From IMG/VR virus record IMGVR_UViG_2923318301_000002: 42,689 nt of DNA, one strand, 5' to 3'. Source of the DNA: a virus (lineage: Duplodnaviria; Heunggongvirae; Uroviricota; Caudoviricetes). A model generated the notes under the pieces. That model made no database searches. It saw only the letters and a list, made by a program, of their open reading frames with translations, and had not been told where the DNA came from. Both the position numbers and the translations under genes were made by a program. Within the stretch, counting starts at the first letter, position 1, and the number at the start of each line of letters is the position of its first letter. Below are positions 1 to 33,447 of the stretch, one piece after another.

Positions 1-327
1 ATGACTAAAAATACTCGTTTTTCCCCCGAAGTCCGTCAACGGGCAGTCCGTATGGTTCTGGAAAGTCAGAGCGAATATGACTCACAATGGGCGACAATTT
101 GTTCCATTGCTCCAAAGATTGGCTGTACGCCGGAGACTCTGCGTGTCTGGGTTCGCCAGCATGAGCGGGATACCGGGGGCGGTGATGGAGGGCTCACCAC
201 CGCTGAACGTCAGCGTCTGAAAGAGCTGGAACGTGAAAATCGTGAACTGCGCCGCAGTAACGATATCCTTCGCCAGGCTTCCGCTTATTTTGCGAAGGCG
301 GAGTTCGACCGCCTCTGGAAAAAATGA
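1..327 (+). CDS. IS3-family transposase OrfA (HTH subunit)
   Basis: 108-aa [22 protein letters not shown]... with leucine-zipper-like C-terminus; stop overlaps orfB start across an A6 run (ggaaaaaatga), typical of IS3-family −1 frameshifting. Confidence 0.85.
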
Positions 328-1214
328 TGCCACTGCTGGATAAGCTGCGTGAGCAGTACGGGGTCGGACCGCTATGCAGCGAACTGCATATTGCCCCGTC
401 AACGTATTACCACTGTCAGCAACAGCGACATCATCCGGATAAACGCAGTGCCCGTGCGCAGCGCGATGACTGGCTGAAGAAAGAGATACAGCGCGTATAC
501 GATGAAAATCACAAGGTATACGGTGTGCGTAAAGTCTGGCGTCAGTTGTTACGGGAAGGTATCAGAGTGGCCAGATGCACTGTGGCACGTCTCATGGCGG
601 TTATGGGACTTGCCGGTGTTCTCCGGGGTAAAAAGGTCCGTACGACCATCAGCCGGAAAGCCGTTGCCGCAGGCGACCGCGTAAACCGTCAGTTCGTGGC
701 AGAACGACCTGACCAGCTGTGGGTGGCTGATTTTACTTACGTCAGCACATGGCGGGGCTTCGTCTATGTGGCGTTCATCATTGATGTGTTTGCCGGATAC
801 ATCGTGGGGTGGCGGGTCTCATCGTCCATGGAAACGACATTCGTGCTGGATGCACTGGAGCAGGCGTTATGGGCCCGTCGACCGTCCGGCACGGTCCATC
901 ACAGTGATAAAGGTTCTCAGTATGTATCGCTGGCCTACACACAGCGGCTTAAGGAAGCCGGATTACTGGCATCAACAGGAAGTACAGGCGACTCGTATGA
1001 CAACGCGATGGCGGAGAGCATCAATGGTCTTTACAAAGCGGAGGTAATACACCGTAAGAGCTGGAAAAACCGTGCAGAAGTGGAACTGGCCACACTCACG
1101 TGGGTGGACTGGTATAACAATCGACGATTGCTGGAAAGGCTGGGCCATACTCCTCCGGCAGAAGCAGAAAAAGCTTATTATGCTTCCATCGGAAACGATG
1201 ATCTGGCAGCCTGA
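324..1214 (+). CDS. IS3-family transposase OrfB (DDE catalytic subunit)
   Basis: 296-aa ORF in the −1 frame relative to orfA; integrase-core-like sequence (…WVADFTYV…HSDKGSQY…YDNAMAES…). Confidence 0.9.
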
Positions 1215-1216
1215 GT

Positions 1217-4200
1217 TCACAGATAAAACACTCTCCAGGAAACCCGGGGCGGTTCAGTAAGGTTTTGCCCGTCTGTTGTTTTTTGCGCATAAAACAGATA
1301 CGCAGCAGACGTTCCAACCTCAAAAACGTTTTGTCGAGTACTGGAACCCCACACCCTGATACTAACTGGTAGTTCTGAATTACCTGAATTAAGTAAAGCA
1401 AAACGATTGCCAGTCCCTGTTTGTTTTCTAATTACTAAATCGGCAGTTGAGTTAACCTCATCTTTGTTGATGGTTAGCGCCTGCGCTGTAGCACCGTTAA
1501 CAGTGCCACTTAGTAGTTGAACCGCTCCATCATCGCCATTTAACAGCACTTGAGCGCTGCTTCTGTGGTTTTTCAGGAACAACATTTTGCCTGTGCTTTC
1601 TGATGTGCCTACCGACCACGCCGAATTGGTTCCAGTGCTATCAACACCGCGCACAGCACAATTCATACTACTGTAATCTGACGTACTCCCCAGCACATCA
1701 ACACGCCCGCCGCCTAATTTTGATGGAGTCGTCGAGGTTAACGACCTGACGGTTACATCCTGATTCCATCCTGAAACAACTACCTGACTCCACTCCGTCC
1801 AGTTTCCATTGACAACAAAGCGAACGTATATGCGTTTTGTGTCGCTGCCAATCAGCGTTTGCATGATCGCATAATCTGAACCCGTAGTTTTACGAGTAGA
1901 TTCTACACGTAGCAAAAAGTTACCGCTTACGCCGTCAGGCTTATTGGTAATATATGCACCACCTGCAACAGTTTTGCATTGATAGTATTTAACAGATCCA
2001 GCCACTGTATTAGCAATGATCAAGTCGTTTAAATCAATAGTCTTGTTGTCAATGGTTTCCGGCTCGATAGATCCCGCCATACCTGCGTTAAATGTGGCAA
2101 AGTCAGAAAAGGTTGTTTTACCGCCTACCGTCACCCCGCTATCGAGTTTTGCTTGTGTGATTACTTTGCTGTTTTTTGTGTGGTCAGAATAACTACCAAA
2201 ATACAAATCACCGTCACCAGCTATACCCAGGTATTTTTGATCAACATCATCAACCTTAAACCCAATGGACAAGTTTTTAATTGTGTTGTTGCTCGTTAAA
2301 ACCAAAGGCGTATGCTGAGATCCTTTGATGCTTACCGTAGTGTTATCGGAACTGGTGCTTGTGTTTGCAAATTCTGCGGTGGCTGCGCTGATTTTGTAAG
2401 TTATTTTTAGATTGCGGGCCTCAACCCTCCCGTCGTGGCGAACAATAAAATCACCACTTGATTCACCTTTTGTGTTTTTCGCCCTGATGTGGATTTCGCC
2501 AAGTGATTCGTTGTTTTCAGGCGACCAAACAACGCCGCGCTCGCTTCCGTCGTTGTTCATGAACCACAGATGAGCGGTTCCTTTTGCTGATTTTAGCCTG
2601 ATAGATGGCGTTTCTTTCAATATATCAAGATCACCAGACATAACATCGCCGGATTTTTTCACCTGCGCATCGTTAGTTACGTTGCCAAGTCCAACATCCG
2701 ATTTCGACGGCTTGTTTGCCGAGCCGTATAGCTCATTGATGCTAAAAGTCCCGTTGTTAAGCCGGGCATCGTTGCCGGCATAGATCTTAATCTTCGCGGT
2801 TGAGTAGTCGATATTGATCGCTGACCACGTATCGCCGCACCGCGAGAATATACCAGAACCGTGGCTATAAATGGTCGCCGTGCTTCCGGTCGGCTTATCA
2901 CCGCGCCAGAAATGACCACCTTTGTCACGCAGAGCTTTTAAGATCTCTACATCGCTCATCTTGCCGTTTGTTGATATCCCGCTACCGCCAAGACCGAAAG
3001 CGCCTGTAAGCATAGCATTAGAAAGACCCAAATCTGCTTTAGTCGGCTTGTTTAACTGGTCGTAAATCCTTACAACGGGGCTTTCAACATATCCAGAAGG
3101 CGCGGCGGTTTGCTTAACAAATCCGTCTGGAATGTATAATTCCGGGCGTGCCGTCTGCGCCAGCACCGCAACCTTTGCGCCGTTGATAAATGCGCGCTGG
3201 AAGGCCCAAACCTCAATAAAGCCGTCACCTTTAACCAGGCCGTAACGCATCTGGTTGTTATCGGTCAGCCCGGTTGACCCTAAGCGGCGTATACTCAGAT
3301 GACGAGAAACATTATCCGCACTAAGCAAAGAAGGCAGACCGCGCGCCGAGATCTCGATAAAGTCAATGTTTCCGTAAGGGGAGCCGTAGTTACCGGCATT
3401 AGTAACCATTAGCGTTACATGGCAATTGCCGCTTCCGGGATCGGAAAGTTTCGCGATCTTTATGTAAAAAGACTCATTACCAGTAACAACGGGCCAATCG
3501 TATTGCGTCATCGGGCTGACGAGTCCCCCGACCTTGTCGAGATATTCTTTCGCCTTGTTCTCTGACGCTTTAGCGTTGGTTTCGCTGACCTTTGCTGCTG
3601 CCTCACTATTTTTCGCGTTGGTTTCTGATTTTTTGGCTGCTGTCGCGGAGTTTGCCGATGCAGTTTGTGAGTCTGCTGCCGCCTGTGCGCTGTTATCCGC
3701 ATTCGTCTCAGACGTTTTTGCGGCCTTCGCGGAATTTCCTGCTGCCGTTGCCGAGGAAGCTGCACTGCCGGCGCTCGAGGCAGCGCTCGTTTCTGATGAT
3801 TTTGCCGCCACTTTTGAAGCCGACGCATCCCGGGCTGAGGTGGCAGCTTCTGACGCTTTCGTGGTCGCGGTGGATGCAGATGTGGCCGCAGATTTTTGTG
3901 ATGCTGCGGCATTCATTTCCGACGTTTTCGCTGCACCGGCACTGGTGGCTGCCGCGCTTTTTGAAGACTCTGCGGCGGCAGCACTTTTTGATGCTTCAGT
4001 GGCCTTTGTTGATGCCGTTCCTGCGCTGGAAGACGCTGACTGAGCCGACGACGCGGCCTGTCCGGCTGACGTGCTGGCTGCACGTGCTGAGCCTGCAGCA
4101 TCAGTCGCACGGGTTGCCGCCTCACGGGCTGATGTGCTGGCATCGCTGGCTGACTTCTTCGCGGCTGCCGTGTTCTGTGCCACCGCGGACGCGTTACGCG

Positions 4201-4540
4201 CCACCTCTTCCACCATCAGTTCAAAACGGCGCAGTGCCTCAGGACGGGCATCATCCTCCGTCATGGCACCGAGAAAATCATTCAGCGTACCGGGTCGGGA
4301 ATCTTCATACACGGTGATGGTCCCGGCATGTGACGGCGGGAATCCTTCCACCAACAGAATAACGCTGTACTGACCGTACTCAACGTCCATGCTGTAACGC
4401 CCGGCTTCATCCGGATTTTCTGAGGCCAGCGTGTTCACCACCACCGTGGTACTGTTACGTTTTGCTTTCAGCTGGATTGTGCAGTTCTGTACCGGTTTTC
4501 CTGTGCCGTCTTTCAGTACACCTGAAATCTTTACTGCCAT
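1217..4540 (-). CDS. stf: Side tail fiber protein (lambda Stf-like), 3' end interrupted by IS629; last ~13 codons and the stop are IS-derived
   Basis: N-terminus MAVKISGVLKDGTGKPVQNCTIQLKAK… matches remembered lambda Stf; long Ala/Ser/Thr-rich repeat region; ATG at 4540 with GGGG upstream (track start 4546 is GTG); ORF continues into the IS inverted repeat (…TDGQN|LTEPPRVSWRVFYL*). Confidence 0.8.
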   Translation of the reverse strand: MAVKISGVLKDGTGKPVQNCTIQLKAKRNSTTVVVNTLASENPDEAGRYSMDVEYGQYSVILLVEGFPPSHAGTITVYEDSRPGTLNDFLGAMTEDDARPEALRRFELMVEEVARNASAVAQNTAAAKKSASDASTSAREAATRATDAAGSARAASTSAGQAASSAQSASSSAGTASTKATEASKSAAAAESSKSAAATSAGAAKTSEMNAAASQKSAATSASTATTKASEAATSARDASASKVAAKSSETSAASSAGSAASSATAAGNSAKAAKTSETNADNSAQAAADSQTASANSATAAKKSETNAKNSEAAAKVSETNAKASENKAKEYLDKVGGLVSPMTQYDWPVVTGNESFYIKIAKLSDPGSGNCHVTLMVTNAGNYGSPYGNIDFIEISARGLPSLLSADNVSRHLSIRRLGSTGLTDNNQMRYGLVKGDGFIEVWAFQRAFINGAKVAVLAQTARPELYIPDGFVKQTAAPSGYVESPVVRIYDQLNKPTKADLGLSNAMLTGAFGLGGSGISTNGKMSDVEILKALRDKGGHFWRGDKPTGSTATIYSHGSGIFSRCGDTWSAINIDYSTAKIKIYAGNDARLNNGTFSINELYGSANKPSKSDVGLGNVTNDAQVKKSGDVMSGDLDILKETPSIRLKSAKGTAHLWFMNNDGSERGVVWSPENNESLGEIHIRAKNTKGESSGDFIVRHDGRVEARNLKITYKISAATAEFANTSTSSDNTTVSIKGSQHTPLVLTSNNTIKNLSIGFKVDDVDQKYLGIAGDGDLYFGSYSDHTKNSKVITQAKLDSGVTVGGKTTFSDFATFNAGMAGSIEPETIDNKTIDLNDLIIANTVAGSVKYYQCKTVAGGAYITNKPDGVSGNFLLRVESTRKTTGSDYAIMQTLIGSDTKRIYVRFVVNGNWTEWSQVVVSGWNQDVTVRSLTSTTPSKLGGGRVDVLGSTSDYSSMNCAVRGVDSTGTNSAWSVGTSESTGKMLFLKNHRSSAQVLLNGDDGAVQLLSGTVNGATAQALTINKDEVNSTADLVIRKQTGTGNRFALLNSGNSELPVSIRVWGSSTRQNVFEVGTSAAYLFYAQKTTDGQNLTEPPRVSWRVFYL

Positions 4541-4551
4541 ATTCACCCCAC

Positions 4552-4577
4552 AAAAAAGCCCGCCTGAACCGGCGGGC
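4552..4577 (-). terminator. Rho-independent terminator downstream of lom
   Basis: GC-rich hairpin gcccgcc-tgaacc-ggcgggc followed on the minus strand by a T6 run. Confidence 0.6.
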
Positions 4578-4604
4578 TGTCATAACACTGTGTTACCTGG
4601 CTAA

Positions 4605-5204
4605 TCAGAATTTATAACCGACACCCACGATGAAACCGTCAGTGCGCCAGTCACCACTGCCGGAGCCTTCATAAGTAATATCAATGGCCACGGATTCGGT
4701 CGGGTTAAACTGCACGCCAGCCCCCCACGCCAGAGACGTGTTGCTGTGGCGACCGTCATCACTTCCGGTCAGCACGTCGTGCGTTTTCCCCTTGTTGTCA
4801 GTTACGCGGAGATAATCCCCGGAGAAAGTCGACACACGGCTGTAAGCCATACCCGCCATCGCATACGCGCTGAACCATTCATTCACGCGCACAGACGGCC
4901 CCGCCATCACGCTGAACCAGCGGTTACGCACGGAATCTTCATGCCAGCGGGTATCGCTGTAATGCGTTTTTTGCTCATCTTTGGCATTGGCATAACTGAA
5001 TGACGTCACCAGCCCCAGCGTGTCCGTAAATTCATAACGGTATTTCACGTTAATCCCGTTCAGATTATCGCTGCCGGGGACGTTCGTACGGGCATGAAGA
5101 TACCCTGCGCTCAGTGTGGACTGGTGTTCAGACGCCCATGCAGGCGTACCTGATACGGCCAGACAGATGGCTGCGGACAAAATAGCTGCATAAACTTTAC
5201 GCAT
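4605..5204 (-). CDS. lom: Outer membrane protein Lom (Ail/Lom family)
   Basis: 199-aa ORF with signal peptide; near-identical to remembered lambda Lom (MRK.YAAILSAAICLAVSG…GFIVGVGYKF). Confidence 0.9.
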   Translation of the reverse strand: MRKVYAAILSAAICLAVSGTPAWASEHQSTLSAGYLHARTNVPGSDNLNGINVKYRYEFTDTLGLVTSFSYANAKDEQKTHYSDTRWHEDSVRNRWFSVMAGPSVRVNEWFSAYAMAGMAYSRVSTFSGDYLRVTDNKGKTHDVLTGSDDGRHSNTSLAWGAGVQFNPTESVAIDITYEGSGSGDWRTDGFIVGVGYKF

Positions 5205-5225
5205 AATTACCTCTCGCTTTTCTGC

Positions 5226-5252
5226 AATAAAAAAGGCGCCATTTCTGGCGCC
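5226..5252 (-). terminator. Rho-independent terminator downstream of J
   Basis: Hairpin ggcgcc-atttct-ggcgcc followed on the minus strand by TTTTTTATT. Confidence 0.55.
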
Positions 5253-5271
5253 CGTATCTGGGTTATAAAAT

Positions 5272-8200
5272 TCAGCTAATCGTGATGCCTGCAGTGGCTT
5301 TCTTCATCACCACAACCAGCAAATCGCTGATACTGGCTGTGGGATACCAGTTATTTACCAGCCATGCTGACACCGAAAACTCCAGTGTCATGTGACCGTG
5401 ACCGGCAGGCATATCAATAACACCACTGTAAATCAGCGTATTATCCAGCGCGGTACGGTTATAAATTTCAGCACCGTTTTTCCGTACTATCAGGCGGCAT
5501 GACGAATAAATATCGTTATTCTCCCGCTCATGTTTAGCGCCGCTGAATGCCACCGCCGGAATAACAATCTGCCGGTCAAACGGCTGATCGTCATAAACCC
5601 TGACGGTGATGGTCCCTGATGGCCACCGTTCCGGTGCACGGGAGTCCCGGGGGAAAGCTTTGCCCACTGTTTTAACGAGATCGCCTTCAATCTGGTTGGC
5701 GGACAGTTTTCCCAGAACCCGACAGTTCTCGTTAATCGTGACGTTGTTGAGCGTCCCGGCGTTCGCATTCACGTTACCGCTGATATCGGCATTTTTCGCC
5801 GTCAGCCGCCCGTCCGGTGTCAGGGAAAATACCGGAGGATTACCGCCGCTGGTAATGGTGGGAGCCGTCAGGCGTTTCAGGAACACTTCGTTCATGAATA
5901 TCTGATCGCCCTGCCCAACAAACATCGGCTTTGTGTTGCCATTCGCAGGATTAATCATCGCAATCCTGTCTGCCGCCAGCAGCACCTGACTCTGCATGCC
6001 GTCAGGGGTGTTCTCAATACCGGCACCAATACCCGCGATATAAAGGCGTCCGTCCTGCATCTGCTGCAGCTTCACAGCCCACATGCTGTTCAGGTTATTA
6101 TTTGTATCAACCTGAACCTTCTGTATCTGCTGAATTGCCGCACTCTGGTCTTCCAGTTTCTTATTGACGGTCTGCGTGATTTCATTGCTGACATCCGTAA
6201 TGGACGTCCTGATTTCAGCCAGGTCAGGCGCAAGCTGACCGTTATCAATCTGCGTCCACAGCTCCTGAGCCAGATGGGTTTTCCCTATCTCGCCTTTGAA
6301 AAAATCCAGATAACCGGATGCATCATCACTCGGCTGACCAACAGCCTCCACGAATGCCGATTTGCCAACGGTGTTCACACTGCGGATATAAAAGTAATAA
6401 TCATGGCCCGGTTTGATATTGATACTGGCGGCTATCCAGTACAGCGCCGTGCCAAGATAGCGTGCTGTGGTTTCAACCTGCCTGATATCGGTAATCCGCT
6501 TTTCCGAGAACCAGAACTCAAACTGTACCGTCGGATCATAAACCGCAAGATGCGGCGTGGCGGTTATCTGAAAATAGCCCGGCGTCAGCTCAATCCGCGA
6601 CGGCGCTGCCGGTGCGGCAATCCGGAACGATACCGACGCCGGATCGCCCTGCTGCCCCCACGCATTTACTGCCCGGACTGTCAGCCTGTAGTTCCCCAGC
6701 GCCAGTTGTGTGAAGCGGTAAGTGGTTTCCGTCGTCCGGGCCGTGCTGACCAGCCACTCACTGCCGTCATCCGCTGTTACGGTCAGACGGAGCAGGAAGC
6801 TCACGCCCTTCACCACCTTCGGCGTGTCCCAGCGCGCCAGCACCTGATATTCCCCGCTGTCTGCGGTGACTTCGGCAGTCAGGTGCTGCACCGCTGGCGG
6901 CGTGACACCATTCACCGTGCCGCTCTGGTCGCCGTCAAAGTGCGCCCCGTTATCCACGATGGCTTCTTTTTCCGGTACATGCTGCACGGCGGTGATGGCA
7001 TACGTGCCGTCATCGTTCTCACGGATACTCACACAGCGGAACAGGCGCTGGCGCAGCGTCGGCAACTTCAGCCCCCACACGCTGTATTCTGCAACACCAT
7101 CAGGAACCCGGCTCACTTTCACCTTCACGCCGTCGGTGACGGACTGGACCTCCACGCTGACCGGATTACCCTGACCGTCAACCAGGCTTATCAGCGTGGT
7201 ACCGGAGGATGGCAGCGTGATTTCACGGTCGAGCGTCAGCGTCCGGGTCTGGCTGTTCACCGCCAGCACGCGCCCGCCGGTGCTGATACCCGCATAGTCA
7301 TCATCGCAGATTTCAATGACATCCCCCGGTACATGGCGAAGCCCTTCCGCACCCACGCTGAAGTCCACGGTCTGCGTTTCCAGCAGTTCCGTTTTAATCA
7401 GCCACAGCCCGGCGCGGTGCGCCTGCCCCCGGCTGGTACAGCCAAAGGCATCCATCTTCGTGACGTTACGACCGTAACGGGCAATGGCCTGCGTATCTTC
7501 AACAAGCTCTGTCGCCGTCTCCCAGCCGTTGTCCGGGTCAATCCAGTTCACCTCAACGGCATTATGGCGGTCTTTCAGGGCGCTGAAGCTGTAGCGGAAC
7601 GGCGCGCCATCATCCGGCATCACCACATTACTGCGGTTATAGGTCCACGCCTTATCCGACGGCCGGTCCTGCACGAACGTCAGCGTCTGCCCGTTCCATA
7701 CCGGCATACAGCGCATCGCCGAGCAGAAATCACTGAGCACATCCCACGCCTTACGCTGTGTGGTCAGGTAAGCGTTACAGGTGATGCGCGGCTCCGTGCC
7801 GCCAAAACCGTCCGGCACCGACTGATCGCAATGCTGGCCGATGACATACAGCGCCCATTTGTCCACATCCGCCGCACCAAGACGTTTCCCCATGCCGTAG
7901 CGCGGATGGGTCAGCATATCCCACAGACACCAGGCCATGTTGTTGCTGTATGCTGGCTTAAACGTTCCGTCCCAGATACCGCTGTATTGCCGCGTCTGCG
8001 GGTTATAGTTCGACGGCACCTGCAGAATGCGCCCGCGCAGATGATAATTACGGCTCACCTGCTGGCTGCCGAACTGCTCCGAATCCACCTGCACGCCGAC
8101 CAGTGCCGTGTTCGGGTAGCACTGTTTCACATCGATGATTTCGGTGTATGACGACCAGAGCGTTTTGTTCTGCAGCTGGTCTGTGGTGCTGTCCGGCGTC

Positions 8201-8751
8201 ATCCTGCGCATCCGGATATTAAACGGGCGCGGCGGCAGGTTATCCACCACCACCGAGGCCAGATACTGCGAGGTGGTTTTGCCCTTAATGGTGATGTCTT
8301 TTTCCGTCACCCAGCCACCATTACGCTGTATCTGAACCAGCAGGCGAACTTCCGACGGATTCCGGTCCCCCTTTGAGGTGGTTTCCACCAGTGCCTGCAC
8401 ACCGAAGGTAAAGCGCAGACGGTCGATGTTTGCAGACGTAATGGTGCGGGTGATCGGCGTGTCATATTTCACTTCCGTACCCAGCACCGTCTCGGAGCCG
8501 GAGGATTCAAACCCCTCCGGCGGTGTCTGCTCCTGCTCACCGGCACGGAACACCACCGTGACACCGGAGATGTTGGTATTCCCCTCAGTGTCCAGCACCG
8601 GCGTACTGTTCAGCAGCACGCTTTTTAATCCATCCACCGGACCTTCAACCGGCCCTTCACTGATGGCGTCTATCACGCTCAGCATCTGGGATGATTTCAG
8701 GTTGTCCTTCGCTTCGCGCGGGGTATGCCCCTTACTGCTGCCTTTACCCAT
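5272..8751 (-). CDS. J: Tail tip host-specificity protein J
   Basis: 1159-aa ORF collinear with lambda gpJ ([22 protein letters not shown]…). Confidence 0.95.
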
Positions 8752-11145: not shown

Positions 11146-14100
11146 TGTACAATCCTCCATCCCGACGCGATGACTGCATAATTGACACAACCCTGCTGTC
11201 GATCAGATCCACCAGTCCCCTGGCTGAGCGCGCATCTATCTCGCCATTGCTCCCTTGATTCTGAATGCTGATGTGATACACGGGAGAATAAACAAATCCA
11301 CCGCCACCATTCACATCTCCAATGGCCCTGACCCCAAGAGAGCCGTCCGCTGCCCGTGTCAGTGGCATGATTGCTTCAGGCCCGGCCTCGCCCATCAACC
11401 CGGCCCCCTTCGCAAAAGCAAAATACGTCGGTGTATCCACAATAGTGTTACTGTAAGCACTCAGATTTGCCGATGTGTAAACACCACCTTTTGCGTTTGC
11501 CACTGCCCCCGAAATCCATCCGCCGACCGTACCAAGCCACCCTCCGGCACCGGAGAGTGATTTCAGTCCGTTAACAATGGCTGCATTCATCAGAATTTTT
11601 GAAACTTCCCGGAGAACTGAACTCCCCCAGTTCCTCCAGTCCACAACATTTCCGGCCAGTGCATCGGAAATATTTGATACCAGCCCGTCCATAGTGGAAA
11701 CGACAGCATCTGCCGCCTGCGAAGCATAATCGGTGGCACTGTCTGCCCAGTTGGTCAGCCCCTCCTGGAGTCCTGCATTCCAGTTATTACGTAAAGCATC
11801 GGCCTTTGCATAATAATCCTGCTGATCGCTGAGACGCTCTTCCAGATATTTTTTATTCAGTTCTTTCTCCTGTTTCCACAGGGCTTCTTCAATTTCTCCG
11901 GCCTGATACTGTCTCAGCAGCTCGTTATTTTTCTGCTCAAACTCATGCCGGATACTCCACATTTCCTGGAGTCGTTCACGCATCCGTGAGCCTTCACCAT
12001 ATCCCAGTAACTGCGCGTCGTTAGACGCCCGGGTACTGGCATTACTGTCCGCCAGGCTGCTTTCATACGCAGCAAGCTGCTCACGAATCTTTTTCTGGTC
12101 GATGAGTGCTGCATTCTGCAAAAGCGTTTTTTTCTGCGCTTCTGACAGGGTTGATAATTCGCCCTGACTGACCTGATATTTCATCTTAGCCAGTTCAGTA
12201 TTCTGCCCTGCCAGTGCTATCTGTTCTTTTTGCTGTTTAATCAGCCGTTTATAAATATCTTCTGTTTTTTCCGCTTCGGTCTTTTTATGCGCTTTGGGTT
12301 TATTTGCCTGGTTATTTCGCCAGGCATCCAGTGAGTTATTGATATAATTCTGTCTGGCTGTCTGATACGCCTCTCCCACAAAGCCAAGATCATCCGCAGC
12401 ATAGCCCAGTCGAGCACGCTCACGCGCTTCCCCCTTAAGGCGGGACAGAGCCAGTTCGCGCTTGCTGTTATTCAGTGCGGTCTGCTGTTTATCATCCAGG
12501 GTTGCCTGTGGTAGCCGTAACGGTACATTCACCAACCCCTGTCGCTGCTGAAGTAATTCATTACCAAGCCCAAGAAGGCGATTAAACTCGGTATGCTGCC
12601 CATTCATGATCAACAGGGACTGATACGCTTTGTTTTGTTCCGCCGCCTGTTGACGGATCAACGCAACCCGCCGCTCCTCCAGCCCGGCAAGCACATCCTG
12701 AATGGATTGCGCTTTGCCCTGCATTTGTGTGAGACGGGACTGTTCAACTGCCAGTTGATTTGTTGCTTCTGCAAGCCCTTCTGTGACTGTTTTTACCGAC
12801 GTCATGTGGTTAATCATAAAACCGTTATCGGTTGTCCAGCCCGGGTTTGCCAGCACATACTGATAGCCAGCAATTTTTTCCTGTAAGGATTTAATCTTAC
12901 TTTTCTGCTCGTCAATTAACCTGTTTTGCTCATCAAGTGCCTGCCGCGTCTTTTCCTCATTATCTGACGCTTCAGGAAGCGACATTGCCGACGTTTTCTG
13001 GCGAATTTCGTCGATTGTTGCGGCATACTGGCGTGCAGATTCTCTGGCCTGCTCCTGATTCTGATACATCGTGTACCAGGCCGTCGCCCCCAGCATGACG
13101 AGTCCCGGCACACCACCAACCAGCCCCAGCGCACCACTTAACAGACGACTCCCCACTGACGTGACAGTATTCAGCGTTGTCTGCGCCGCTGTTCTGGCCG
13201 CAATATTACGGGTAAGTGACGCCTGAGCAGCTGTCAGCTTCGCTTCTGCTGCGGCCTGCCTTTCGGTACCGCGAGCAGCAACAACCGCCTGTTGCGCACG
13301 ATAAACCGCCGCACGCGCTCTGGCGGTTGCTATCTGTGTCCCCCGAAGTTGCGCTTCAGCAAGAGCCACTTCGTTTCTGGCTGCAGTAATTAATCCGGCA
13401 GTTGCAGATCCAGCAGACGACGCCATATTGCCAAAATATCGGGCTACCCCGACGGCAACCAGTGCGCCAGCTGCAGCAGCCACGGTATCAATATTGTCTG
13501 CAACACCATTCAGCACACCGGAGAGTGTCTTTGTCACTCCGCTTGCCTCGTTCGCACCACCAACCCAGGCCATAAAGGCGTTTTCAACTTTGGTTGCAGA
13601 GGATGAAACAGTATCAGGCATTGCTGCATATTCATCACGCAACGCCCCAAGCTGACTAATCAGTGCAGGAACAACCTTATCGGCGGTCAGTTTTCCGTTA
13701 TCCGCCATGGCCTTCAGATCCTTACGGGCAACCCCCATTCCCGCAGCCAGCGCACGAATAACACGATCGCCGTTCTCATTCACCGAGTTAAACTCTTCAC
13801 CGCGCAGCACTCCCTGCGCCAGTGCCTGACTGAACTGCATGATCACCGAACTGGCTTCTGCTGTACTGGCACCGGATAATTTCAGGCCCGTGGAGATCGC
13901 CTCGGTGACTTTCAGTACCTCCTCAGAACTGTAACCATACTCCCGCATGGAAGCTGCAGAACGGGCAAAAAGGCTGGCGTTATCAGAAAACGCCGTCCCC
14001 GTTCTCTGGCTGATCGCCATTAATTCACGCTGTGATGCCTGAAAATCATCACTGGACTGTGAGGCCTGCTTCAGACGGGCATTTACTGAATTCCACTCAT

Positions 14101-23672: not shown

Positions 23673-23852
23673 TCCCCGCTTTATCCAAATTGCATTGCCA
23701 GAATGCCGACAACAGACTGACATTCAAATCCTGACTACCTCCAATAGGCTGAGCATCCACCTATATAGTTTTAATTTTCATCAATCCATTTAACTATCGT
23801 TTAATTGTTGTCACATAGGATTCTGCCGTTTTTAACAATGCAGGATAATAAG

Positions 23853-24146
23853 ATGAAAAAAATGTTGTTTTCTGCCGCGCTGGCAATGCTTATTACAGGA
23901 TGTGCTCAACAGACGTTTACTGTTGGAAACAAACCGACAGCAGTAACACCAAAGGAAACCATCACCCATCATTTCTTCGTTTCGGGAATTGGACAGGAGA
24001 AAACTGTTGATGCAGCCAAAATTTGTGGCGGCGCAGAAAATGTTGTTAAAACAGAAACCCAGCAAACATTCGTAAATGGATTTCTCGGTTTTATTACTTT
24101 AGGCATTTATACTCCACTGGAAGCGCGTGTGTATTGCTCACAATAA
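23853..24146 (+). CDS. bor: Bor lipoprotein (serum resistance)
   Basis: MKKMLFSAALAMLITGC lipobox; near-identical to remembered lambda Bor; start at internal ATG 23853 with AGGA RBS. Confidence 0.9.
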   Translation: MKKMLFSAALAMLITGCAQQTFTVGNKPTAVTPKETITHHFFVSGIGQEKTVDAAKICGGAENVVKTETQQTFVNGFLGFITLGIYTPLEARVYCSQ

Positions 24147-24177
24147 TTGCATGAGTTGCCCATCGATATGGGCAGCT

Positions 24178-24639
24178 CTATCTGCACTGCTCATTAATAT
24201 ACTTCTGGGTTCCTTCCAGTTGTTTTTGCATTGTGATCAGCCTCTCTCTGAGGGTGAAATAATCCCGTTCAGCGGTGTCTGCCAGTCGGGGGCTGGTTGC
24301 ATTATCCACGCCGGAGGCGGTGGTGGCTTCACGCACTGACTGACAGACTGCTTTGATGTGCAACCGACGACGACCAGCGGCAACATCAGCGCGCAGAGTT
24401 TCATTTTCAGCTTTCGCATTGGCTAATTCTCTCGAGTACTTTGCATCGAGTGCAGCAACATCACGCTGACGCTGCTGCATGTCAGCGATAGTGGCGATCG
24501 CCTGCTTCAGCTCACTGACTTTTTTATCACGCTGTTCTTTGTAGGCGATGGCGTTATCACGGTAATGATTGACCGCCCACGACAGGCAGACGATGATGCA
24601 GATAACCAAAGCATAAATAATCGCGGCGACTCTGCTCAC
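24178..24639 (-). CDS. Rz: Spanin inner-membrane subunit Rz
   Basis: Matches lambda Rz (…[20 protein letters not shown]…[18 protein letters not shown]); GTG start overlapping R stop (GTGA). Confidence 0.9.
24237..24419 (-). CDS. Rz1: Spanin outer-membrane lipoprotein Rz1 (embedded in Rz, +1 frame)
   Basis: 60-aa ORF with lipobox LVVVGC and PPPPP tract, matches lambda Rz1. Confidence 0.85.
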
Positions 24640-25169
24640 TGCTCTATCCCCCAACAGGCTAATGCGCTTTCCTGGTCACGACGAATAACCTGTCCATAGC
24701 AGTTATTTGAACGTATGCGGCAATCGCGCCCACCATCTTTTATCCACCAGCGAATCGCCTCGCATGCGCCCTTACGATCACCGGCATTCAGCCGCTTATA
24801 AAACGTCGACGGGAAACACTTACCGGGGCCAATGTTATAGGGACAGAATGACGCTATACCCGCTTTTTGTGGTTCGGTCAGTAGTACTTTAATATTGCGC
24901 TCCACCCATGCCAGCGCCTTATCACGCTCAATGGCGTTGACCTGGTCGCATTTTTCCTTCGACAGTTTCATACCGGGAAAAACGGGTTTTCCATCCACCA
25001 TCGTGGCACCCCGACAGATGGTCCAGATGCCGGACCCATCGCGGTATGCCGTTGTGTGGTTACCTTCTTTTTCATCCAGAAACTGGTCGAGAATATCAGG
25101 CGCGGGCGCACCGACGGCAATCAGTGCCAGAACGGCAGCCGACAGGCCGTATCTGATTTTTGCGTTCAT
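24636..25169 (-). CDS. SAR endolysin (T4-lysozyme-like, Qin RrrQ/P21 R type)
   Basis: N-terminal Ala/Gly-rich weakly hydrophobic segment ([18 protein letters not shown]) then E-x8-D-x5-T catalytic triad ([16 protein letters not shown]). Confidence 0.9.
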
Positions 25170-25232
25170 GGATATTTATCAGGATTTATCGGTTTCTGCC
25201 CACGGACAGGTTTATCTGTTCCGGTCAGTGAC

Positions 25233-25583
25233 TTAAGGTTGTGATTCCGGAGGAGTCTTCAGAGAACCAGTAATTCTTCCCGGTAGCTTTCCTTTGTAGG
25301 TTATCCATACATTCTGCGCCTCTAAAATTACGGGGCGCTTTTCCGGCGACTGCTCATCCCCTTCACATAACCCGGCAGCAACATCCAGGAAGACCTGTCT
25401 GATACTCATTCTGGCTGCTGCCTCATAAAACTCCAGCGCGGCACCTTCAACACGGTCCAGCGAGATGTCCAGGTCAAAAATTTCACCGTCAAAGCGTTTT
25501 TTGTCCCGTAACGCTAAAGTTACCGTAACTTTATTCTCAAAATTGCGGATCCCTTTCACAATCAGTTCATAGTTTTGAGTCAT
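25233..25583 (-). CDS. YdfR-like protein (DUF1327-type) inserted between holin and endolysin
   Basis: 116-aa ORF with GGGGAGAG RBS; resembles remembered Qin YdfR and sits in the same position between holin and endolysin. Confidence 0.5.
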   Translation of the reverse strand: MTQNYELIVKGIRNFENKVTVTLALRDKKRFDGEIFDLDISLDRVEGAALEFYEAAARMSIRQVFLDVAAGLCEGDEQSPEKRPVILEAQNVWITYKGKLPGRITGSLKTPPESQP

Positions 25584-25587
25584 TGAA

Positions 25588-25803
25588 TTACTCTCCCCGT
25601 GCCGCCTTACGACGGTCCTCTCTGATTTTGAAATACAGGTTAGTCAGATATGTCAGCAGCCCAAACAGCAGACTCCCCAGCACGCCTATTGCCGCCCACT
25701 GAGACGGGGAAACCCTGTCCAGCAACTGCAGGAACCAGTAGCCCGTTCCCACCGCTGACGTGGTGTATGACACACCTGTTGTGATTTTTTCCATCTGGTC
25801 CAT
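25588..25803 (-). CDS. Pinholin (S21-like class II holin, 71 aa)
   Basis: [10 protein letters not shown]… with two in-frame Met codons (possible dual start), two TM segments and charged C-terminus; matches remembered P21 S21. Confidence 0.85.
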
Positions 25804-26110
25804 ACCCCGTCTCCCGTTATCCGGAAGCTGACAACAATAAAAAAGCCACCAGTTAACTACTGATGGCTCTGATAACTCATGCAAGCGTCTCAGACGATCC
25901 ACTGACACTACCGGTGAGTTTAACGATACCTTCCATTTGACTGGCTCACTTTTTATGATGATGCCGGTGTATTTATCTCCAGCACCAGACTTTCTATCTC
26001 AACGCCATACGTTGCATTTTTGGTAATATCCGTCAGCGTCAGTGCATTTAGTCCCACTGCCAGACCGTCTTTTATGGTCTGGAATGCCGGGCCAGTACGA
26101 TGACGTAGTA

Positions 26111-26299
26111 TCACTCCGGCTCAGTTGCACCACTGACCACCACATCACCTTCTGCTGCAATCGCCTGCATCAGGGTATAAGGGGTTATGGCCACCGGACT
26201 ACCAAACGGCTGCCAGCCCTCTTTCAGTTTATGTGTCAGCTTTTCCGCAAGATCTGACGGCGGCGCCGCCCTGACAACATCATAGTGTTTAAATGCCAT
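26111..26299 (-). CDS. Hypothetical protein (possibly DUF1737-like) upstream of the lysis cassette
   Basis: 62-aa ORF MAFKHYDVVRAAPPSDLAEKL…EGWQPFGSP… with GGTGGA RBS; the longer track ORF begins inside the IS30 terminal repeat. Confidence 0.4.
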   Translation of the reverse strand: MAFKHYDVVRAAPPSDLAEKLTHKLKEGWQPFGSPVAITPYTLMQAIAAEGDVVVSGATEPE

Positions 26300-26330
26300 G
26301 GTTCTTTCCACCATCTGAAAAATAATTCCT

Positions 26331-27396
26331 TGAATTGTCAAACCAAGTGCAACGATTTTTTGAAGTAAACTTCATAAGGTGTTTTCCAACCTAAACATTT
26401 ACGTGGTCGTAAATTCAGTTTATTGATCACCTGTTGAATATCAACTTCGCTCCACTGATTGATGTCTTGGTGCTTCGGAAAGTATTCACGAAGTAACCCA
26501 TTTGTATTTTCATTCGTTCCCCGTGTCCACGGTTGATGCGGCTCGGGGAAGTAAAATTCTACACCCAGTGCTTCTGTTACCAAACGATGTTGGGCAAATT
26601 CTTTACCACGGTCTGGCGTAATTGACCGCAATATATGTGAATCCAGCAATTCAATCATGGCTTTTTGGACTGCTTCGGCTTTTTTGGCAGGAATTTTCTT
26701 CACCAACTCAAAACGACTTTTGCGTTCCGTCAGCGTCAGCAAACAAGCTCCACCCGCTTTACCCAGTACGGTATCGGCTTCCCAATGTCCAAAGCGACTG
26801 CGATTTTGCGCCGAAATGGGACGGTCGTTCAAATGGTTGGATATCTGAATTTTGCCACGTTTTTCATGATGATTTTTTGTATGCCGTGTTTTGCCTTTGT
26901 GGCGCAGTTTGCGACTGGCTTTGCGTTCGCCTATATCAAACAACCCTGAATAAATACCACGATAAATGGTTGAATAACTAATGGATAATTCAGATTTTTC
27001 CAATTTTAATCGTGCGCTGATTTGTTCGGGCGACCAGTTTTCTGTCAGAAACTTTTCTTGCACCAAATTGAAATATTCAGGCTGCTCTAATTTGCGCTGT
27101 GCTTTGCTATTTTGACGATGCTTCAAATAGCTGTTTTGTGCGTTCGTTGCACTGTAGCTTTCTAGAGCGTGTCGTTTCAGCTCGCGAGAAATGGTGCTGG
27201 AGCTACGTCCCAGTGCTTTGGCAATTTCTGCTTGTTTTTTGCCCTGTGCGAGTAAAATCATTATCTTTTCTCGCTCGTTTATTGTAAGATGTCGGTAGGA
27301 AGTACTCATCATTTGGAAATGGTTTTTGTGTGGAAACAAAATTATATTCTAGTTGATGAGTACTTCTTTTTTTGTTGCACTTGGATTGTAAATTCA
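26331..27396 (-). mobile_element. IS30-family insertion sequence (~1.07 kb)
   Basis: Single transposase ORF flanked by imperfect terminal inverted repeats (left …tgaattgtcaaaccaagtgcaac, right gttgcacttggattgtaaattca); ends uncertain by ±1-2 bp. Confidence 0.7.
26338..27312 (-). CDS. IS30-family transposase
   Basis: N-terminal HTH (…LTINEREKIMILLAQGKKQAEIAKALGRSSSTISRELKR…) and DDE region (…HWEADTV…RGTNENTNGLLR…); start at ATGATG 27312. Confidence 0.85.
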   Translation of the reverse strand: MMSTSYRHLTINEREKIMILLAQGKKQAEIAKALGRSSSTISRELKRHALESYSATNAQNSYLKHRQNSKAQRKLEQPEYFNLVQEKFLTENWSPEQISARLKLEKSELSISYSTIYRGIYSGLFDIGERKASRKLRHKGKTRHTKNHHEKRGKIQISNHLNDRPISAQNRSRFGHWEADTVLGKAGGACLLTLTERKSRFELVKKIPAKKAEAVQKAMIELLDSHILRSITPDRGKEFAQHRLVTEALGVEFYFPEPHQPWTRGTNENTNGLLREYFPKHQDINQWSEVDIQQVINKLNLRPRKCLGWKTPYEVYFKKSLHLV

Positions 27397-27631
27397 GCTC
27401 TTTAAAATACCAGACATGTAACACAGAAAAAACACAAAACCATACCTTAAATAGAAACCTGATCATCAAGCAGATATGCATGGATAAACTACAAGACGAG
27501 ATATAAACCACCCTGCATTTAAATAAACAATAAACAACATCAGAAAAATAATTCTGCTCTATGGTTTATATTCAAAAATATCATTTATACTTTTCAGAAC
27601 ATCACCAGCAAGGCATAAACAAGGAAGCTAA

Positions 27632-27967
27632 ATGAAGTGGATTGTAATTGATACAGTTATCCAGCCATCATGCGGAATATCTTTTTCAGTCATATGGAGT
27701 AAAGTAAAATTAATAATCTGGTATCAATCGGATGCTTTCTTACCTCCTGAAAGTATATTTACACTGACTCACACAGGTATCATGCTCAATAACAAAGTGC
27801 TACCTGTAACCATTTACAACGTAGTACCATTCAATAAAACATTCTGGAATTTAATCAAAAACAGCCAGGAATGCCCTACAAATACAGATAACGTATTGAA
27901 TGAATGCTTTAATAACCGTTGCATTCTGCAAATATGTCCTTATGGACTAAAACAACAAAGTCCATAA
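27632..27967 (+). CDS. Hypothetical protein, AT-rich accessory gene (111 aa, 6 Cys)
   Basis: AAGGAAG RBS 6 nt upstream of ATG; strongly AT-rich relative to the prophage backbone; convergent with late transcription. Confidence 0.45.
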
Positions 27968-28002
27968 GGAGTTTACTCACATCTGACAAAATCAATATAA
28001 AC

Positions 28003-28193
28003 AGCCCCTCCGGAGAGGGGCTGGAGAGTGGCGCTATGTGCCATTGCATGGTGCCGGGTGCCTCCCGGTGAATTCAGTACCAGCACCTGAATCCGCGATT
28101 ATCCCATATACCTACTCGCTGATTACCCCTCCGCACAGGGGGATTCACCATGCGAAATTTTTTAACAAACTTCCCGCCGGCCAGACAATAATC
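28003..28193 (-). repeat. Structured element copy A (candidate ncRNA; paralogue of copy B)
   Basis: Shares with copy B a terminal hairpin AGCCCCTCCGGAGAGGGGCT and conserved blocks (GCATGGTGCC.GG.GCCTCCCGGT.AATTCAG; GGGGGATTCACCATGCGA; TTTTTAACAAA…GCCAGACAAT.ATC); stem partners are conserved while loops differ. Confidence 0.5.
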
Positions 28194-28465
28194 GCCAGCC
28201 TGAATTATGAGCAACGTGGCATTTTACGGGAAAACTGTTTTCTGCAGTAAAAAGGCCCGCCGGAGCGAGCCTGGAAGGATAGCGGTCATGTGATGCCGGT
28301 TTCCCGGTAACTCAGCATCGGTATCTGAGTCAACGTTTTCTCTACTGGGTCATTTCCGATACGTTCCGCCTTCCGGCAGACTTTCATCACGTCAGAAAAT
28401 ATAGCACCCTGAGTAACAGGACAGTACTCAGAATTCAGGAAACTGTGACACATCCTGCACAGAAA

Positions 28466-28663
28466 AGCCCCTCCGGAGAGGGGCTGAAGTATAGCCTAAT
28501 TTCTGTCTGTCGCATGGTGCCAGGGGCCTCCCGGTAAATTCAGCCTGTCTACTGAATTTGCATGTTCTCTGGATCATACACTTTGCCAGATGCCCCGCCG
28601 CTGAGGGGGATTCACCATGCGATGTAATTTTTAACAAATTCTCCGGCAGCCAGACAATCATCA
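28466..28663 (-). repeat. Structured element copy B (candidate ncRNA; paralogue of copy A)
   Basis: As copy A; on the minus strand the terminal hairpin is followed by TTTTCTGTG. Confidence 0.5.
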
Positions 28664-28856
28664 AGCTGTGGAATTGTGAGGTATTTAAAAATTTCAACGG
28701 GTAACTGATACCCTGCTAATCGCCTGATGCTTTCTTTTTCAGCAACGGGAAAGCAACAACCACACACCCGCCACCAAAACACCATCAGACAGCACCGACA
28801 TTATCCGGCTGCTGAAGTCCACCATCACCACCAGAAACAACAGGAGTGCAACCACA

Positions 28857-28900
28857 GCTGCTTAGAAGGCAATTGCTCTGCCCGGCTGAGCTAACAACGC
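28857..28900 (-). other. tRNA-like 5' fragment (acceptor, D arm and anticodon arm with UCU-like anticodon); no T arm or 3' acceptor
   Basis: GCGTTGTTAGCTCAGCCGGGCAGAGCAATTGCCTTCTAAGCAGC folds as the 5' two-thirds of a tRNA; downstream sequence gives no T stem or ACAACGC-CCA. Confidence 0.3.
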
Positions 28901-29000
28901 TGAATACCGATAATGGACCGCCATCGGGGACCCGCCCCCGCACCAACAACCCTGTTATCGTGTCGTCTGCTCTTCCTGATAAGCTAATGGCGGTTTGTGA

Positions 29001-29076
29001 TGGTGGCCCTTGCTGGATTTGAACCAGCGACCTGGCGATTATGAGTCGCTCGCTCTCACCACTGAGCTAAAGGGCC
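29001..29076 (-). tRNA. tRNA with CAU anticodon (Met or Ile2/lysidine type; ileZ-like of lambdoid phages)
   Basis: 76-nt cloverleaf folded by hand: acceptor GGCCCTT/AAGGGCC, D arm GCTC…GAGC, anticodon loop CTCATAA, T arm GCTGG-TTCAAAT-CCAGC, 3' CCA encoded. Confidence 0.9.
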
Positions 29077-29113
29077 GGGAGTAGAATAATAACGGTCCGT
29101 AACTAATTCCGCA

Positions 29114-29137
29114 ATAAAAAACCCGCTCGGCGGCGGG
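29114..29137 (-). terminator. tR'-like intrinsic terminator downstream of the late promoter
   Basis: Hairpin cccgccgccgagcggg followed on the minus strand by TTTTTTAT, ~45-50 nt downstream of the predicted −10. Confidence 0.6.
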
Positions 29138-29186
29138 TTGTAGAAACTCTTCTAACGTCAGGCATAAAAAGCCCATTATTATGACG

Positions 29187-29214
29187 AATTTACCACAGAT
29201 TCCGGAAAAATCAA
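29187..29214 (-). promoter_or_regulatory. Late promoter pR'-like (−35 TTGATT, 16-nt spacer, −10 TAAATT) immediately downstream of the Q-like gene
   Basis: Sigma-70-like hexamers on the minus strand; −10 TAAATT is the same hexamer I recall for lambda pR'. Confidence 0.45.
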
Positions 29215-29219
29215 CCTTG

Positions 29220-30041
29220 TTACCTAGTTACCTTTTTTAACTGCCGCTCAGCCCATGCTTCTTCAATATCAAACCGGGTCACCAGCGCATCATAGAATTT
29301 CTTAACTGTTTTTTCCCATGACGCGCGTGTTATCTGGTTTGTCACCTCGCATATAGCATTAAATGTCTCCGTTGATGGTAGTCTTTCATAGCCACGACCA
29401 CCACAACGCTGGCAGTCTCTGATAACAGGCATACCACGTTTTACCGACTCTTCACGATGAATGGCGACACCACGCCCACGGCAATCCTTACAGGCGGTGG
29501 AAACCTCACCCTTTCCGCCACACTCCGGACAGGCAACTTTTACCACCTCCCTGACTTTTTTCCATTCTTCCCAGTAAGACGAATACACACCTTTCGTACA
29601 CTTTGCCCATACCGGCGGCTTACCATCCGGATACTGGACCTTGTTTGTAAAAACTACGCTTTCAATAAATTTTTCCCCATAGCAACAAGGGCACTGCTTT
29701 TTACTCGCTGCGCTGCGGGCATAATCCTCAAAAGCGTACGAAGCCATAATGCGCATCACTAACGGTTTTATTTCTGCCGGAAGTTTTCTCAACGCCGCAA
29801 CACGATCGCACCGACTGAGTGCATAATCTGCCAGTAATTCTGTTGCCCGCGCCCTGTCATTCATACTGATGCCCATTTTCCCCAGGAACGCAGAAAACCC
29901 CATCTCAGCCCGATTCTGTGTCATGCCCTGCGCGGCCATCACATCAGTGATACTCAGCGCATCTTTTGACGTTGAGGCCGATGCATCGGTCAGGCCAGGG
30001 GATTTTGGGGAGTAGTATTTCGGTAAATCTTCCAGTTTCAT
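29220..30041 (-). CDS. Putative late-gene antiterminator (Q-position) with four DnaJ-type CxxCxGxG zinc-finger motifs
   Basis: 273-aa ORF after rusA (ATGA overlap) and before the pR'/tR'/tRNA block; motifs CPCCYGEK, CPECGGKG, CKDCRGRG, CQRCGGRG; function inferred from synteny. Confidence 0.5.
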   Translation of the reverse strand: MKLEDLPKYYSPKSPGLTDASASTSKDALSITDVMAAQGMTQNRAEMGFSAFLGKMGISMNDRARATELLADYALSRCDRVAALRKLPAEIKPLVMRIMASYAFEDYARSAASKKQCPCCYGEKFIESVVFTNKVQYPDGKPPVWAKCTKGVYSSYWEEWKKVREVVKVACPECGGKGEVSTACKDCRGRGVAIHREESVKRGMPVIRDCQRCGGRGYERLPSTETFNAICEVTNQITRASWEKTVKKFYDALVTRFDIEEAWAERQLKKVTR

Positions 30042-30418
30042 TTTTTGACCTGCTCTTCATGCATTATGGGGTAAATCTTCACCCCCAGACGTCCACCAGA
30101 TACTGGCTGACCACGAACGATATTGATTTCATCAAACTGCTCATCGTCCATTAACACTCCCGCATGCGTCAGCGCATCCAGCGGTGCTTTCAGGATATTG
30201 TCCAGGTCGCGACGACGCTTATCCGGTGGCTCTGCAATCACCTTTATCGCCAGCCTTCCGGACAGGTTTAATTTCAGCCGCTGCTGGCGAACAATTAGCG
30301 CCACATCACGGCGATAACGCTTTCCGGCCTCCGAGATGAAATACGTATTGCCATGACGTCGCCAGTAGGTATTCACCGTCGGCGGGTAAGGCAAAACAAA
30401 TTCTATGCGTTCAGTCAT
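30038..30418 (-). CDS. rusA: Holliday junction resolvase RusA
   Basis: 126-aa ORF with RusA-like motifs (…PDKRRRDLDNILKAPLDALTHAGVLMDDEQ…). Confidence 0.85.
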   Translation of the reverse strand: MTERIEFVLPYPPTVNTYWRRHGNTYFISEAGKRYRRDVALIVRQQRLKLNLSGRLAIKVIAEPPDKRRRDLDNILKAPLDALTHAGVLMDDEQFDEINIVRGQPVSGGRLGVKIYPIMHEEQVKK

Positions 30419-31477: not shown

Positions 31478-31478
31478 G

Positions 31479-31757
31479 TTACCTCCAGATCCGTTGCTGG
31501 TATGTGCGGGATGAACGCGGTGGGCGTTCGGAGTAAGGGAGTCTGACTGAGATTATCCAGTGACGGTAGTCGAGGCTAAGAGCTTTCTTAACCTCGTATC
31601 CGCGCCTGCGGTAACACTGAATTATCCATTCCGCCTGCTCTTCAGTGCATGGAGGATGCTGGAACCAGTCTGATTTGAATGCGTGAAAACGCCGTCCGCA
31701 CCTACTGGCAAAGACGGCAGAATCATTAGAATTGTGTAATTTGGTATCGTGCGCCAT
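31479..31757 (-). CDS. Hypothetical protein (92 aa)
   Basis: ORF from ATG 31757 downstream of the hok terminator; stop 1 nt before the next start; weak RBS. Confidence 0.4.
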   Translation of the reverse strand: MAHDTKLHNSNDSAVFASRCGRRFHAFKSDWFQHPPCTEEQAEWIIQCYRRRGYEVKKALSLDYRHWIISVRLPYSERPPRSSRTYQQRIWR

Positions 31758-31828
31758 CGGTTGTCTCTGCTGGCGCAGCAGGTGCCAGTTGTTCAGGCTG
31801 GCGTGCGAATTGTAAACCAGAATGCCAG

Positions 31829-31856
31829 GAAAAAACAAAACCCGCCGAAGCGGGTT
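31829..31856 (-). terminator. Rho-independent terminator at the 3' end of the hok transcript
   Basis: Hairpin aacccgcttcggcgggtt followed on the minus strand by TTGTTTTTT. Confidence 0.6.
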
Positions 31857-31924
31857 ACGTGCGGGTGCGTTGAGGATGCCTGACACATCAGAGGTGGCGA
31901 GGGATTTCTCCCCCGCCAGGTCTC

Positions 31925-33354: not shown

Positions 33355-33447
33355 TTAACTACCGCCCTTTCGGGCGGCCTCCTGATGTTCTGAGGGTGCA
33401 GAAATCCCTCCGGTTAAGGATTAAATTTTTAACAGAGCTAAATTTAA

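Follow-up and report, generated by a model that had tools for sequence, protein, structure and literature searches.

The window analyzed here, a stretch of 42,689 nucleotides from an IMG/VR virus record, opens inside an insertion sequence (IS) that lies directly against the side tail fiber gene stf, followed further to the right by lom and the tail tip gene J (Table 1). Since the stf open reading frame (ORF) follows J and lom (order J–lom–stf) and closes the tail module, it is identified on sequence grounds as a lambda-type side tail fiber gene. The phage_tail_N domain (PF08400, Prophage tail fibre N-terminal domain) is retained at residues 3–136 with a score of 239 bits. Codons are numbered from the GTG at 4546; RefSeq and the phage Ayreon use an ATG at 4540, two codons later.

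Sequence to the left of position 1 was read from relatives. The best of these is the Escherichia coli WCHEC005784 locus (L001/L007), in which the first 4,652 bases of the window recur without a single difference. In comparison to WCHEC005784, the window carries an extra 1070-bp ISApl1 element and scattered differences. According to the RefSeq annotation of a near-identical locus, the remaining prophage is largely complete by appearance. attR lies beyond the window, which closes with the stop codon of the integrase gene, and a search for attL/attR direct repeats gave no exact repeat of at least 11 bp between L001 1–1100 (the potB side) and the right end of the window.

Table 1. Coordinates of the features at the left end of the window.
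Feature	Position	Strand	Details and basis
IS629-type IS3-family insertion sequence, 5' end outside the window	1..1256	+	Corresponds to IS positions 55–1310
IS orfA, 108 aa, HTH_Tnp_1	1..327	+	ORF and profile match
ALIL pseudoknot (RF01497), programmed −1 frameshift signal	282..398	+	120 bits, gathering score 50
IS orfB, 296 aa, rve DDE integrase core	324..1214	+	ORF and profile match
Right terminal inverted repeat of the IS	1232..1256	.	23/25 match to the left repeat (off-window)
Last 12 codons of the stf ORF (EPPRVSWRVFYL) and TGA stop, IS-encoded	1217..1255	-	Junction translation
Truncated side tail fiber gene stf, 1097 native codons, without S74 domain	1217..4546	-	ORF, Pfam, alignment
3-bp target-site duplication GTA, copy adjoining stf	1257..1259	.	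Other copy off-window, L001 5944–5946
lom	4605..5204	-	ORF and RefSeq annotation of near-identical locus
Tail tip/host-specificity gene J, intact, 1159 aa	5272..8751	-	Main receptor-binding protein, unaffected

The IS629-type element and its junction with stf

Position 1 of the window is the ATG of orfA, and the first 54 bp of the element, including its left inverted repeat, are located off-window, which is an effect of the window edge and not of biology. In L001, the full IS spans 1310 bp (5947–7256) and is identical to window positions 1–1256 across the overlap. Comparison of its two ends in this locus revealed imperfect terminal inverted repeats, which begin with TGAAC... and match at 23 of 25 positions. 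The two transposase frames overlap in the −1 frame, with an A6 run at 319–324 inside the span of the ALIL pseudoknot, and the NCBIfam IS3 transposase model NF033516 was matched as well. A neighboring identical copy is labeled in RefSeq as “IS3-like element IS629 family transposase.” IS629 belongs to the IS3 family, with IS1203 and IS3411 as isoforms. Its published length is 1310 bp (PMC3064760), and target duplications of 3–4 bp have been described (PMC3271280). We consequently assign the element to the IS629 type, an assignment resting on length, repeats, ORFs, pseudoknot and target duplication together with the RefSeq label of the neighboring copy.

The right end of the IS reads ...CCCGGGGCGGTTCA at position 1256, and it is here that the minus-strand stf ORF enters the right inverted repeat. 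Thr1097 (GTG numbering) is the last native codon, the third base of which, position 1256, is at the same time the first base of the IS as met from stf. The codons at 1220–1255 encode EPPRVSWRVFYL, and the TGA stop occupies 1217–1219. A previous sequence-only reading of this DNA had proposed that an IS629-like element truncates stf and that the last ~13 codons and the stop are IS-derived. Both proposals are borne out by the IS ORFs, the right repeat and the stf ORF crossing into the IS end, with an exact count of 12 codons plus TGA.

Empty site and displaced 3' end

To the left of the IS, the L001 sequence ends with ...TTTACAGTA, and to the right of it the window resumes with GTAAGG..., i.e., GTA is present on both sides of the element (the left side being read in L001), confirming the 3-bp target duplication. 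In silico deletion of the IS and one GTA copy restored an open ORF of 1254 codons. A 1000-bp query over this reconstructed junction retrieved five complete genomes at 100% identity in a single ungapped piece, as well as ~300 more at lower identity. Over 7146 bp, the reconstruction furthermore aligns colinearly to strain HUM3355 (12 mismatches, 0 gaps), and the stf of this IS-free strain is likewise a continuous ORF of 1254 codons. A chance origin of the GTA duplication is excluded.

The remaining 157 stf codons adjoin the other end of the IS at L001 5469–5946, just beyond the window. The native C-terminal part of the fiber had been described as either displaced or lost, and only the former applies: because these 157 codons sit directly across the IS in L001 and the empty site is intact elsewhere, the 3' end is displaced, not lost, and the expected sequence left of the window was indeed found adjoining the IS in relatives (173 of the 175 carriers).

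The part cut off from the fiber

The reconstructed protein matches Peptidase_S74 (PF13884, “chaperone of endosialidase” in Pfam) at residues 1111–1162 from profile position 1 onward (60.1 bits, cut-off 22) and shows a weak coiled-coil-type Pfam match (APC_N_CC, residues 1211–1252) below the cut-off of that model. In a Pfam search, the truncated protein encoded in the window gave no Peptidase_S74 match, and none of the NCBIfam models matched the fiber. Outside the window, the domain starts with the motif SDRRLK, in which Lys1116 comes five residues after Ser1111. This S-D-x-x-x-K (S-x4-K) dyad is present in the reconstructed and the IS-free alleles and is kept in all four intact homologs that were aligned, comprising the IS-free allele, a second prophage allele, and the fibers of Ayreon and mEp460. 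All four share the stretch ...NCTTLNQSSDR.LK... and continue for 157 residues past the junction, giving the size of the missing C-terminus; not one of these intact homologs ends at the junction in the way the IS-bearing allele does.

The arrangement of S1111 and K1116 equals that of the catalytic dyad S911/K916 of endoNF (PMC8326128). In addition, the ...SSDRRLK... stretch aligns with the long-tail-fiber distal subunit gp37 of phage S16 (PDB 6F45, E = 2e-9), with the 14 residues directly after the junction falling on the gp37 strand just ahead of the cleavage site. In the S74 family, a Ser/Lys dyad is used, and the domain drives trimerization and folding of the fiber before cleaving itself off (PMC8326128). 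The lost part is hence predicted to consist of 14 residues of the mature fiber and the whole ~143-residue S74 chaperone/self-cleaving domain, and the IS lies 14 codons ahead of the Ser/Lys motif, the place where self-cleavage is predicted. A receptor-binding tip was also considered for the lost part and rejected, as the Peptidase_S74 intramolecular chaperone was identified instead.

The sequence-only reading had further expected a tail fiber assembly gene (tfa) to be displaced or lost behind stf, which did not hold. Downstream of stf, IS-free alleles feature only a 135-bp C-terminal tfa remnant; such remnants of 123–135 bp are found in both IS-free and IS-bearing alleles (in L001 after the displaced stf 3' end), and in phage mEp460, stf is not followed by any tfa gene. 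Since this fiber type is without a working tfa even in IS-free alleles, none was displaced by the IS. The absence of tfa fits a fiber carrying its own chaperone, and the remnant looks like the scar of an earlier module exchange.

Distribution and left flank of the insertion

Among 5426 complete E. coli genomes, 175 (~3%) contain the junction between the IS and stf (right junction) and 173 the junction between the stf 3' end and the IS (left junction). The identical right junction in 175 genomes, together with the left one in 173, points to a single insertion that was clonally inherited and in which the orphan end was almost always kept. The exact truncated protein is moreover indexed in 571 blocks of a public assembly collection.

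The left flank itself differs among relatives. Some carry a second, inverted IS629, and in many the orphan chaperone fragment lies between inverted IS629 copies. Most relatives have a group II intron in the IS itself, and in some such an intron is found within one or the other of the IS copies. There are also two deletion derivatives, one without the stf 3' end and another with only an internally deleted IS. As the left flank was taken from relatives that differ at this place, how the orphan fragment is arranged in the source genome can only be inferred.

A GenBank “phage” record, representing a PHASTER-predicted prophage, ends with the same shortened fiber carrying 12 transposon-derived residues. 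Record ON470612 was considered as proof of a truncated fiber in a viable phage and rejected, since it is a PHASTER prediction and not an isolated phage.

Discussion

Taken as a whole, the locus is very probably best explained by an IS629-type insertion that splits stf and removes the S74 chaperone, leaving a fiber which is predicted not to trimerize; the insertion itself has spread clonally. A 1310-bp IS629-type element transposed into the distal part of stf in a lambda-like prophage residing between potB and potC, thereby duplicating GTA. The 1254-codon gene was split after codon 1097, with translation of the upstream part running 12 codons into the IS before it stops and the downstream 157 codons remaining as a fragment across the IS. 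A single insertion event followed by clonal inheritance accounts for its present distribution.

The truncated product would comprise nearly the whole mature fiber but, by analogy to characterized S74 proteins, would presumably neither fold nor trimerize without the S74 domain. Endosialidases deprived of their chaperone domain, for example, fail to fold or trimerize (PMC3742443; PMC8326128). The earlier suggestion that the fiber is likely non-functional can be followed with a “probably,” given that members of the S74 family need their chaperone domain, and loss of function is in our view the most likely outcome of the truncation. Virions, if made, would be devoid of side fibers and would depend on J, the tip protein left intact, in the manner of laboratory lambda. 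In the latter, Stf is dispensable, and loss of stf is frequent and arises readily (PMC2762979). Since J is intact and laboratory lambda plates well without side fibers, fiber loss should not kill the phage, which by analogy would be fiber-less but not dead.

An alternative option, to which we assign a small chance, would be that the truncated fiber still works, either because it folds by itself or because the orphan S74 fragment or the S74 fiber of another prophage acts as its chaperone in trans. Of the 1111 residues predicted for the mature fiber, the protein retains 1097, among them the phage_tail_N attachment domain as well as its distal domains, so that it ends just 14 residues short of the natural maturation site, and neither half of the gene is damaged in comparison to the IS-free allele. 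Exactly these 14 residues, however, match the strand that precedes the cleavage site in S16 gp37. Help in trans is at odds with the characterized S74 chaperones, which act in the same chain and the constructs of which fail once the domain is missing (PMC3742443; PMC8326128). One gene caller (L013) did predict a 164-aa S74 ORF on the orphan fragment, but the fragment lacks any ATG, GTG or TTG in frame ahead of codon ~1172, leaving the dyad and the domain core untranslatable from a normal start. For lack of such a canonical start, a complete chaperone cannot come separately from the orphan fragment, and its expression on its own was therefore rejected.

In another reading, stf would already have been dead upon arrival of the IS, with the insertion sitting in a pseudogene. 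In RefSeq, the IS-free allele is annotated in two pieces, a pseudo N-terminal part and, separately, an S74 peptidase, and remnants of tfa and dinI are present in the surrounding region. Nevertheless, the IS-free allele is one uninterrupted ORF of 1254 codons, colinear with the side tail fiber genes of Ayreon (1252 aa) and mEp460, so that the split annotation does not result from a stop codon or frameshift; no such lesion common to all IS-free stf alleles was found. A prior loss of the gene is accordingly very improbable. We regard it as equally improbable that the insertion represents a reversible off-switch for side fibers rather than a dead end, even though the few 100%-identical empty sites could be precise-excision revertants, because the gene halves are identical to the IS-free allele and the duplication is intact. 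Under this reading, the orphan chaperone fragment, where flanked by inverted IS629 copies in relatives, could also be rearranged by recombination. Least credible of all, and hardly worth upholding, is an artifact of the assembly or the window, such as a chimeric contig at a repeated IS. IS629 is multicopy, short-read assemblies often break or are mis-joined at such elements, and the start of the window coincides exactly with the transposase start codon. This reading is refuted by the recurrence of the same right junction in 175 complete genomes and of the left one in 173, as well as by the matching 3-bp duplication and the precise empty site in other strains.

The insertion of an IS629-type element into an uninterrupted stf, which we favor over these readings, is an ordinary gene inactivation by a common E. 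coli IS and is already known in kind. Its biological importance is small, although it accounts for the shortened side tail fiber annotation found in hundreds of assemblies. The only mildly instructive point is that the IS has cut between a fiber and its intramolecular chaperone, almost precisely at the border of the domain. For host-range engineering with this fiber, the 1254-residue IS-free allele including the S74 chaperone should be chosen. The junction of IS and stf might further serve as a candidate clonal marker, given that 175 of the 5426 complete genomes contain it.

The element itself resembles IS629 insertions described for E. coli prophages in its length of 1310 bp, the orfA/orfB organization with a −1 frameshift and ALIL pseudoknot, the terminal repeats (TGAACCGCCCCGGG...) and the 3-bp duplication, but the hosts are here non-O157 clinical and animal E. 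coli. An S74-type stf as IS629 insertion site was not found in the literature covered by our non-exhaustive search. With respect to the fiber, the intact allele shares the C-terminal PF13884 domain and its dyad with endoNF (the K1F endosialidase), the T5 L-shaped tail fiber, K5 lyase, GA-1 gp12 and S16 gp37. In contrast to these characterized S74/ICA/CIMCD proteins, the domain is here attached to a lambda-type Stf with a phage_tail_N N-terminus and, in the window allele, physically split from the remainder of the gene. Close counterparts are the fibers of the phages Ayreon (MF807953) and mEp460 (NC_019716), which show the same J–lom–stf order, N-terminal domain and S74 C-terminus at 87% and 54% identity to the window protein, respectively, and whose genes, unlike the stf of the window, are uninterrupted.

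Finally, the situation is comparable to that of lambda PaPa (cf. Ur-lambda), likewise a lambdoid phage with a disrupted side tail fiber gene and an intact J. The expected phenotype would correspondingly be that of fiber-less, slower-adsorbing, viable particles (PMC2762979). The two cases differ in the lesion, which in lambda PaPa is a single-base frameshift and here an IS insertion, and in the way the fiber is assembled: lambda Stf needs the separate chaperone Tfa, encoded by its own gene downstream, whereas the chaperone of the fiber described here is part of the same protein.

Remodeling of the IS629 insertion

The IS629 copy that truncates the side tail fiber gene stf is itself interrupted in many relatives at about position 795 by a 2,261-bp group II intron, which begins with the bases GTGTG and carries an ORF with RVT_1 and GIIM domains. 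Strains differ in where they carry the intron: in copy 1 of IS629, in copy 2, in both copies or not at all. The nesting is on three levels: the intron within the IS and the IS within the prophage. The uninterrupted IS629 seen in the window occurs in only about 28–30 of the 175 carrier genomes (complete E. coli genomes with the IS-stf junction). The additional copy, found in many relatives to the left of the window, is inverted, lies 646 bp off and has its own 3-bp duplication, GTT; consequently, IS629 copies in inverted orientation enclose the orphaned 3' end of stf together with the tfa remnant. Moreover, two deletion derivatives of the insertion (CP035350 and CP130447) were observed, both of which still encode the identical IS-tailed truncated fiber.

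Coordinates of the insertion elements, their derivatives and further prophage features
Feature	Locus	Position	Remark
Group II intron	relative L002	3216-5476	
Group II intron	WCHEC005784 (L001)	2245-4505	also in relatives L011, L014-L017
Second IS629	WCHEC005784 (L001)	1721-5300	also in relatives L010, L013, L015, L017
IS629 derivative	CP035350 (L012)	11285-11581	palindromic pair of right ends, 148 + 150 bp, all that remains; stf 3' end gone
IS629 derivative	CP130447 (L006)	4501-4760	IS cut down to 262-bp remnant composed of both ends
IS-free stf	L005	6023-9787	
IS-free stf	L003	5505-9272	
ISApl1 (IS30 family), 1070 bp	window	26329-27398	second IS, unrelated to IS629
ISApl1 transposase ORF	window	26338-27339	minus strand
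TC, 2-bp duplication flanking ISApl1	window	26327-26328 + 27399-27400	
potB/potC site	window	right end	integrase stop 42689
potB/potC site	WCHEC005784 (L001)	1-425	
potB/potC site	WCHEC005784 (L007)	41785-42579	
Last retained fiber segment	window	1260-1500	
lom difference cluster	window	4653-4685	
J difference cluster	window	7649-8440	
1-bp indel region	window	near 22954	

Annotation of stf in deposited records

For IS-free strains, RefSeq divides stf into two entries, an N-terminal part marked "pseudo" and a "pyocin knob domain-containing S74 family peptidase." The gene is, in fact, a continuous reading frame of 1254/1255 codons in these strains, and the split is therefore an annotation artefact. 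The same truncated stf is present in GenBank ON470612 ("Escherichia phage vB_EcoS-640R1"), whose record stops exactly at the IS-derived stop codon. An origin of this record from an isolated virus was ruled out, as its source preprint describes a PHASTER-predicted prophage.

Prophage location, cargo and divergence

The prophage sits between potB and potC and therefore splits the potABCD operon; beside it, between the same genes, lie a gene for a SAM-dependent methyltransferase and older remnants of tfa and dinI. No att repeat was found on comparing the potB-side flank (L001) with the right end of the window, which stops at the integrase stop. According to the L007 annotation, window ~23850-38700 holds genes for lysogeny and cargo, namely iss/bor, iraM, hokD, dicB, ydfC/ydfD and a tRNA-Ile. 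A LexA-family repressor-like gene, short at 112 aa, and a handful of small pseudogenes are annotated as well. ISApl1 has iraM on one side and the remnant of a DUF1737 gene on the other; its site is unoccupied in the closest complete genome, and its junction was found in none of the 5,426 complete E. coli genomes. Differences from the otherwise near-identical WCHEC005784 prophage are concentrated in lom and J, with a 1-bp indel region besides; the pattern resembles patches of recombination rather than mutations spread at random.

The last fiber segment kept upstream of the IS comprises Stf residues ~1015-1097 (...SIRVWGSSTRQNVFEVGTSAAYLFYAQK...) and resembles domains that recur in gp34, the proximal long tail fiber of T4 (PDB 5NXH, 4UXE; E about 1e-4).
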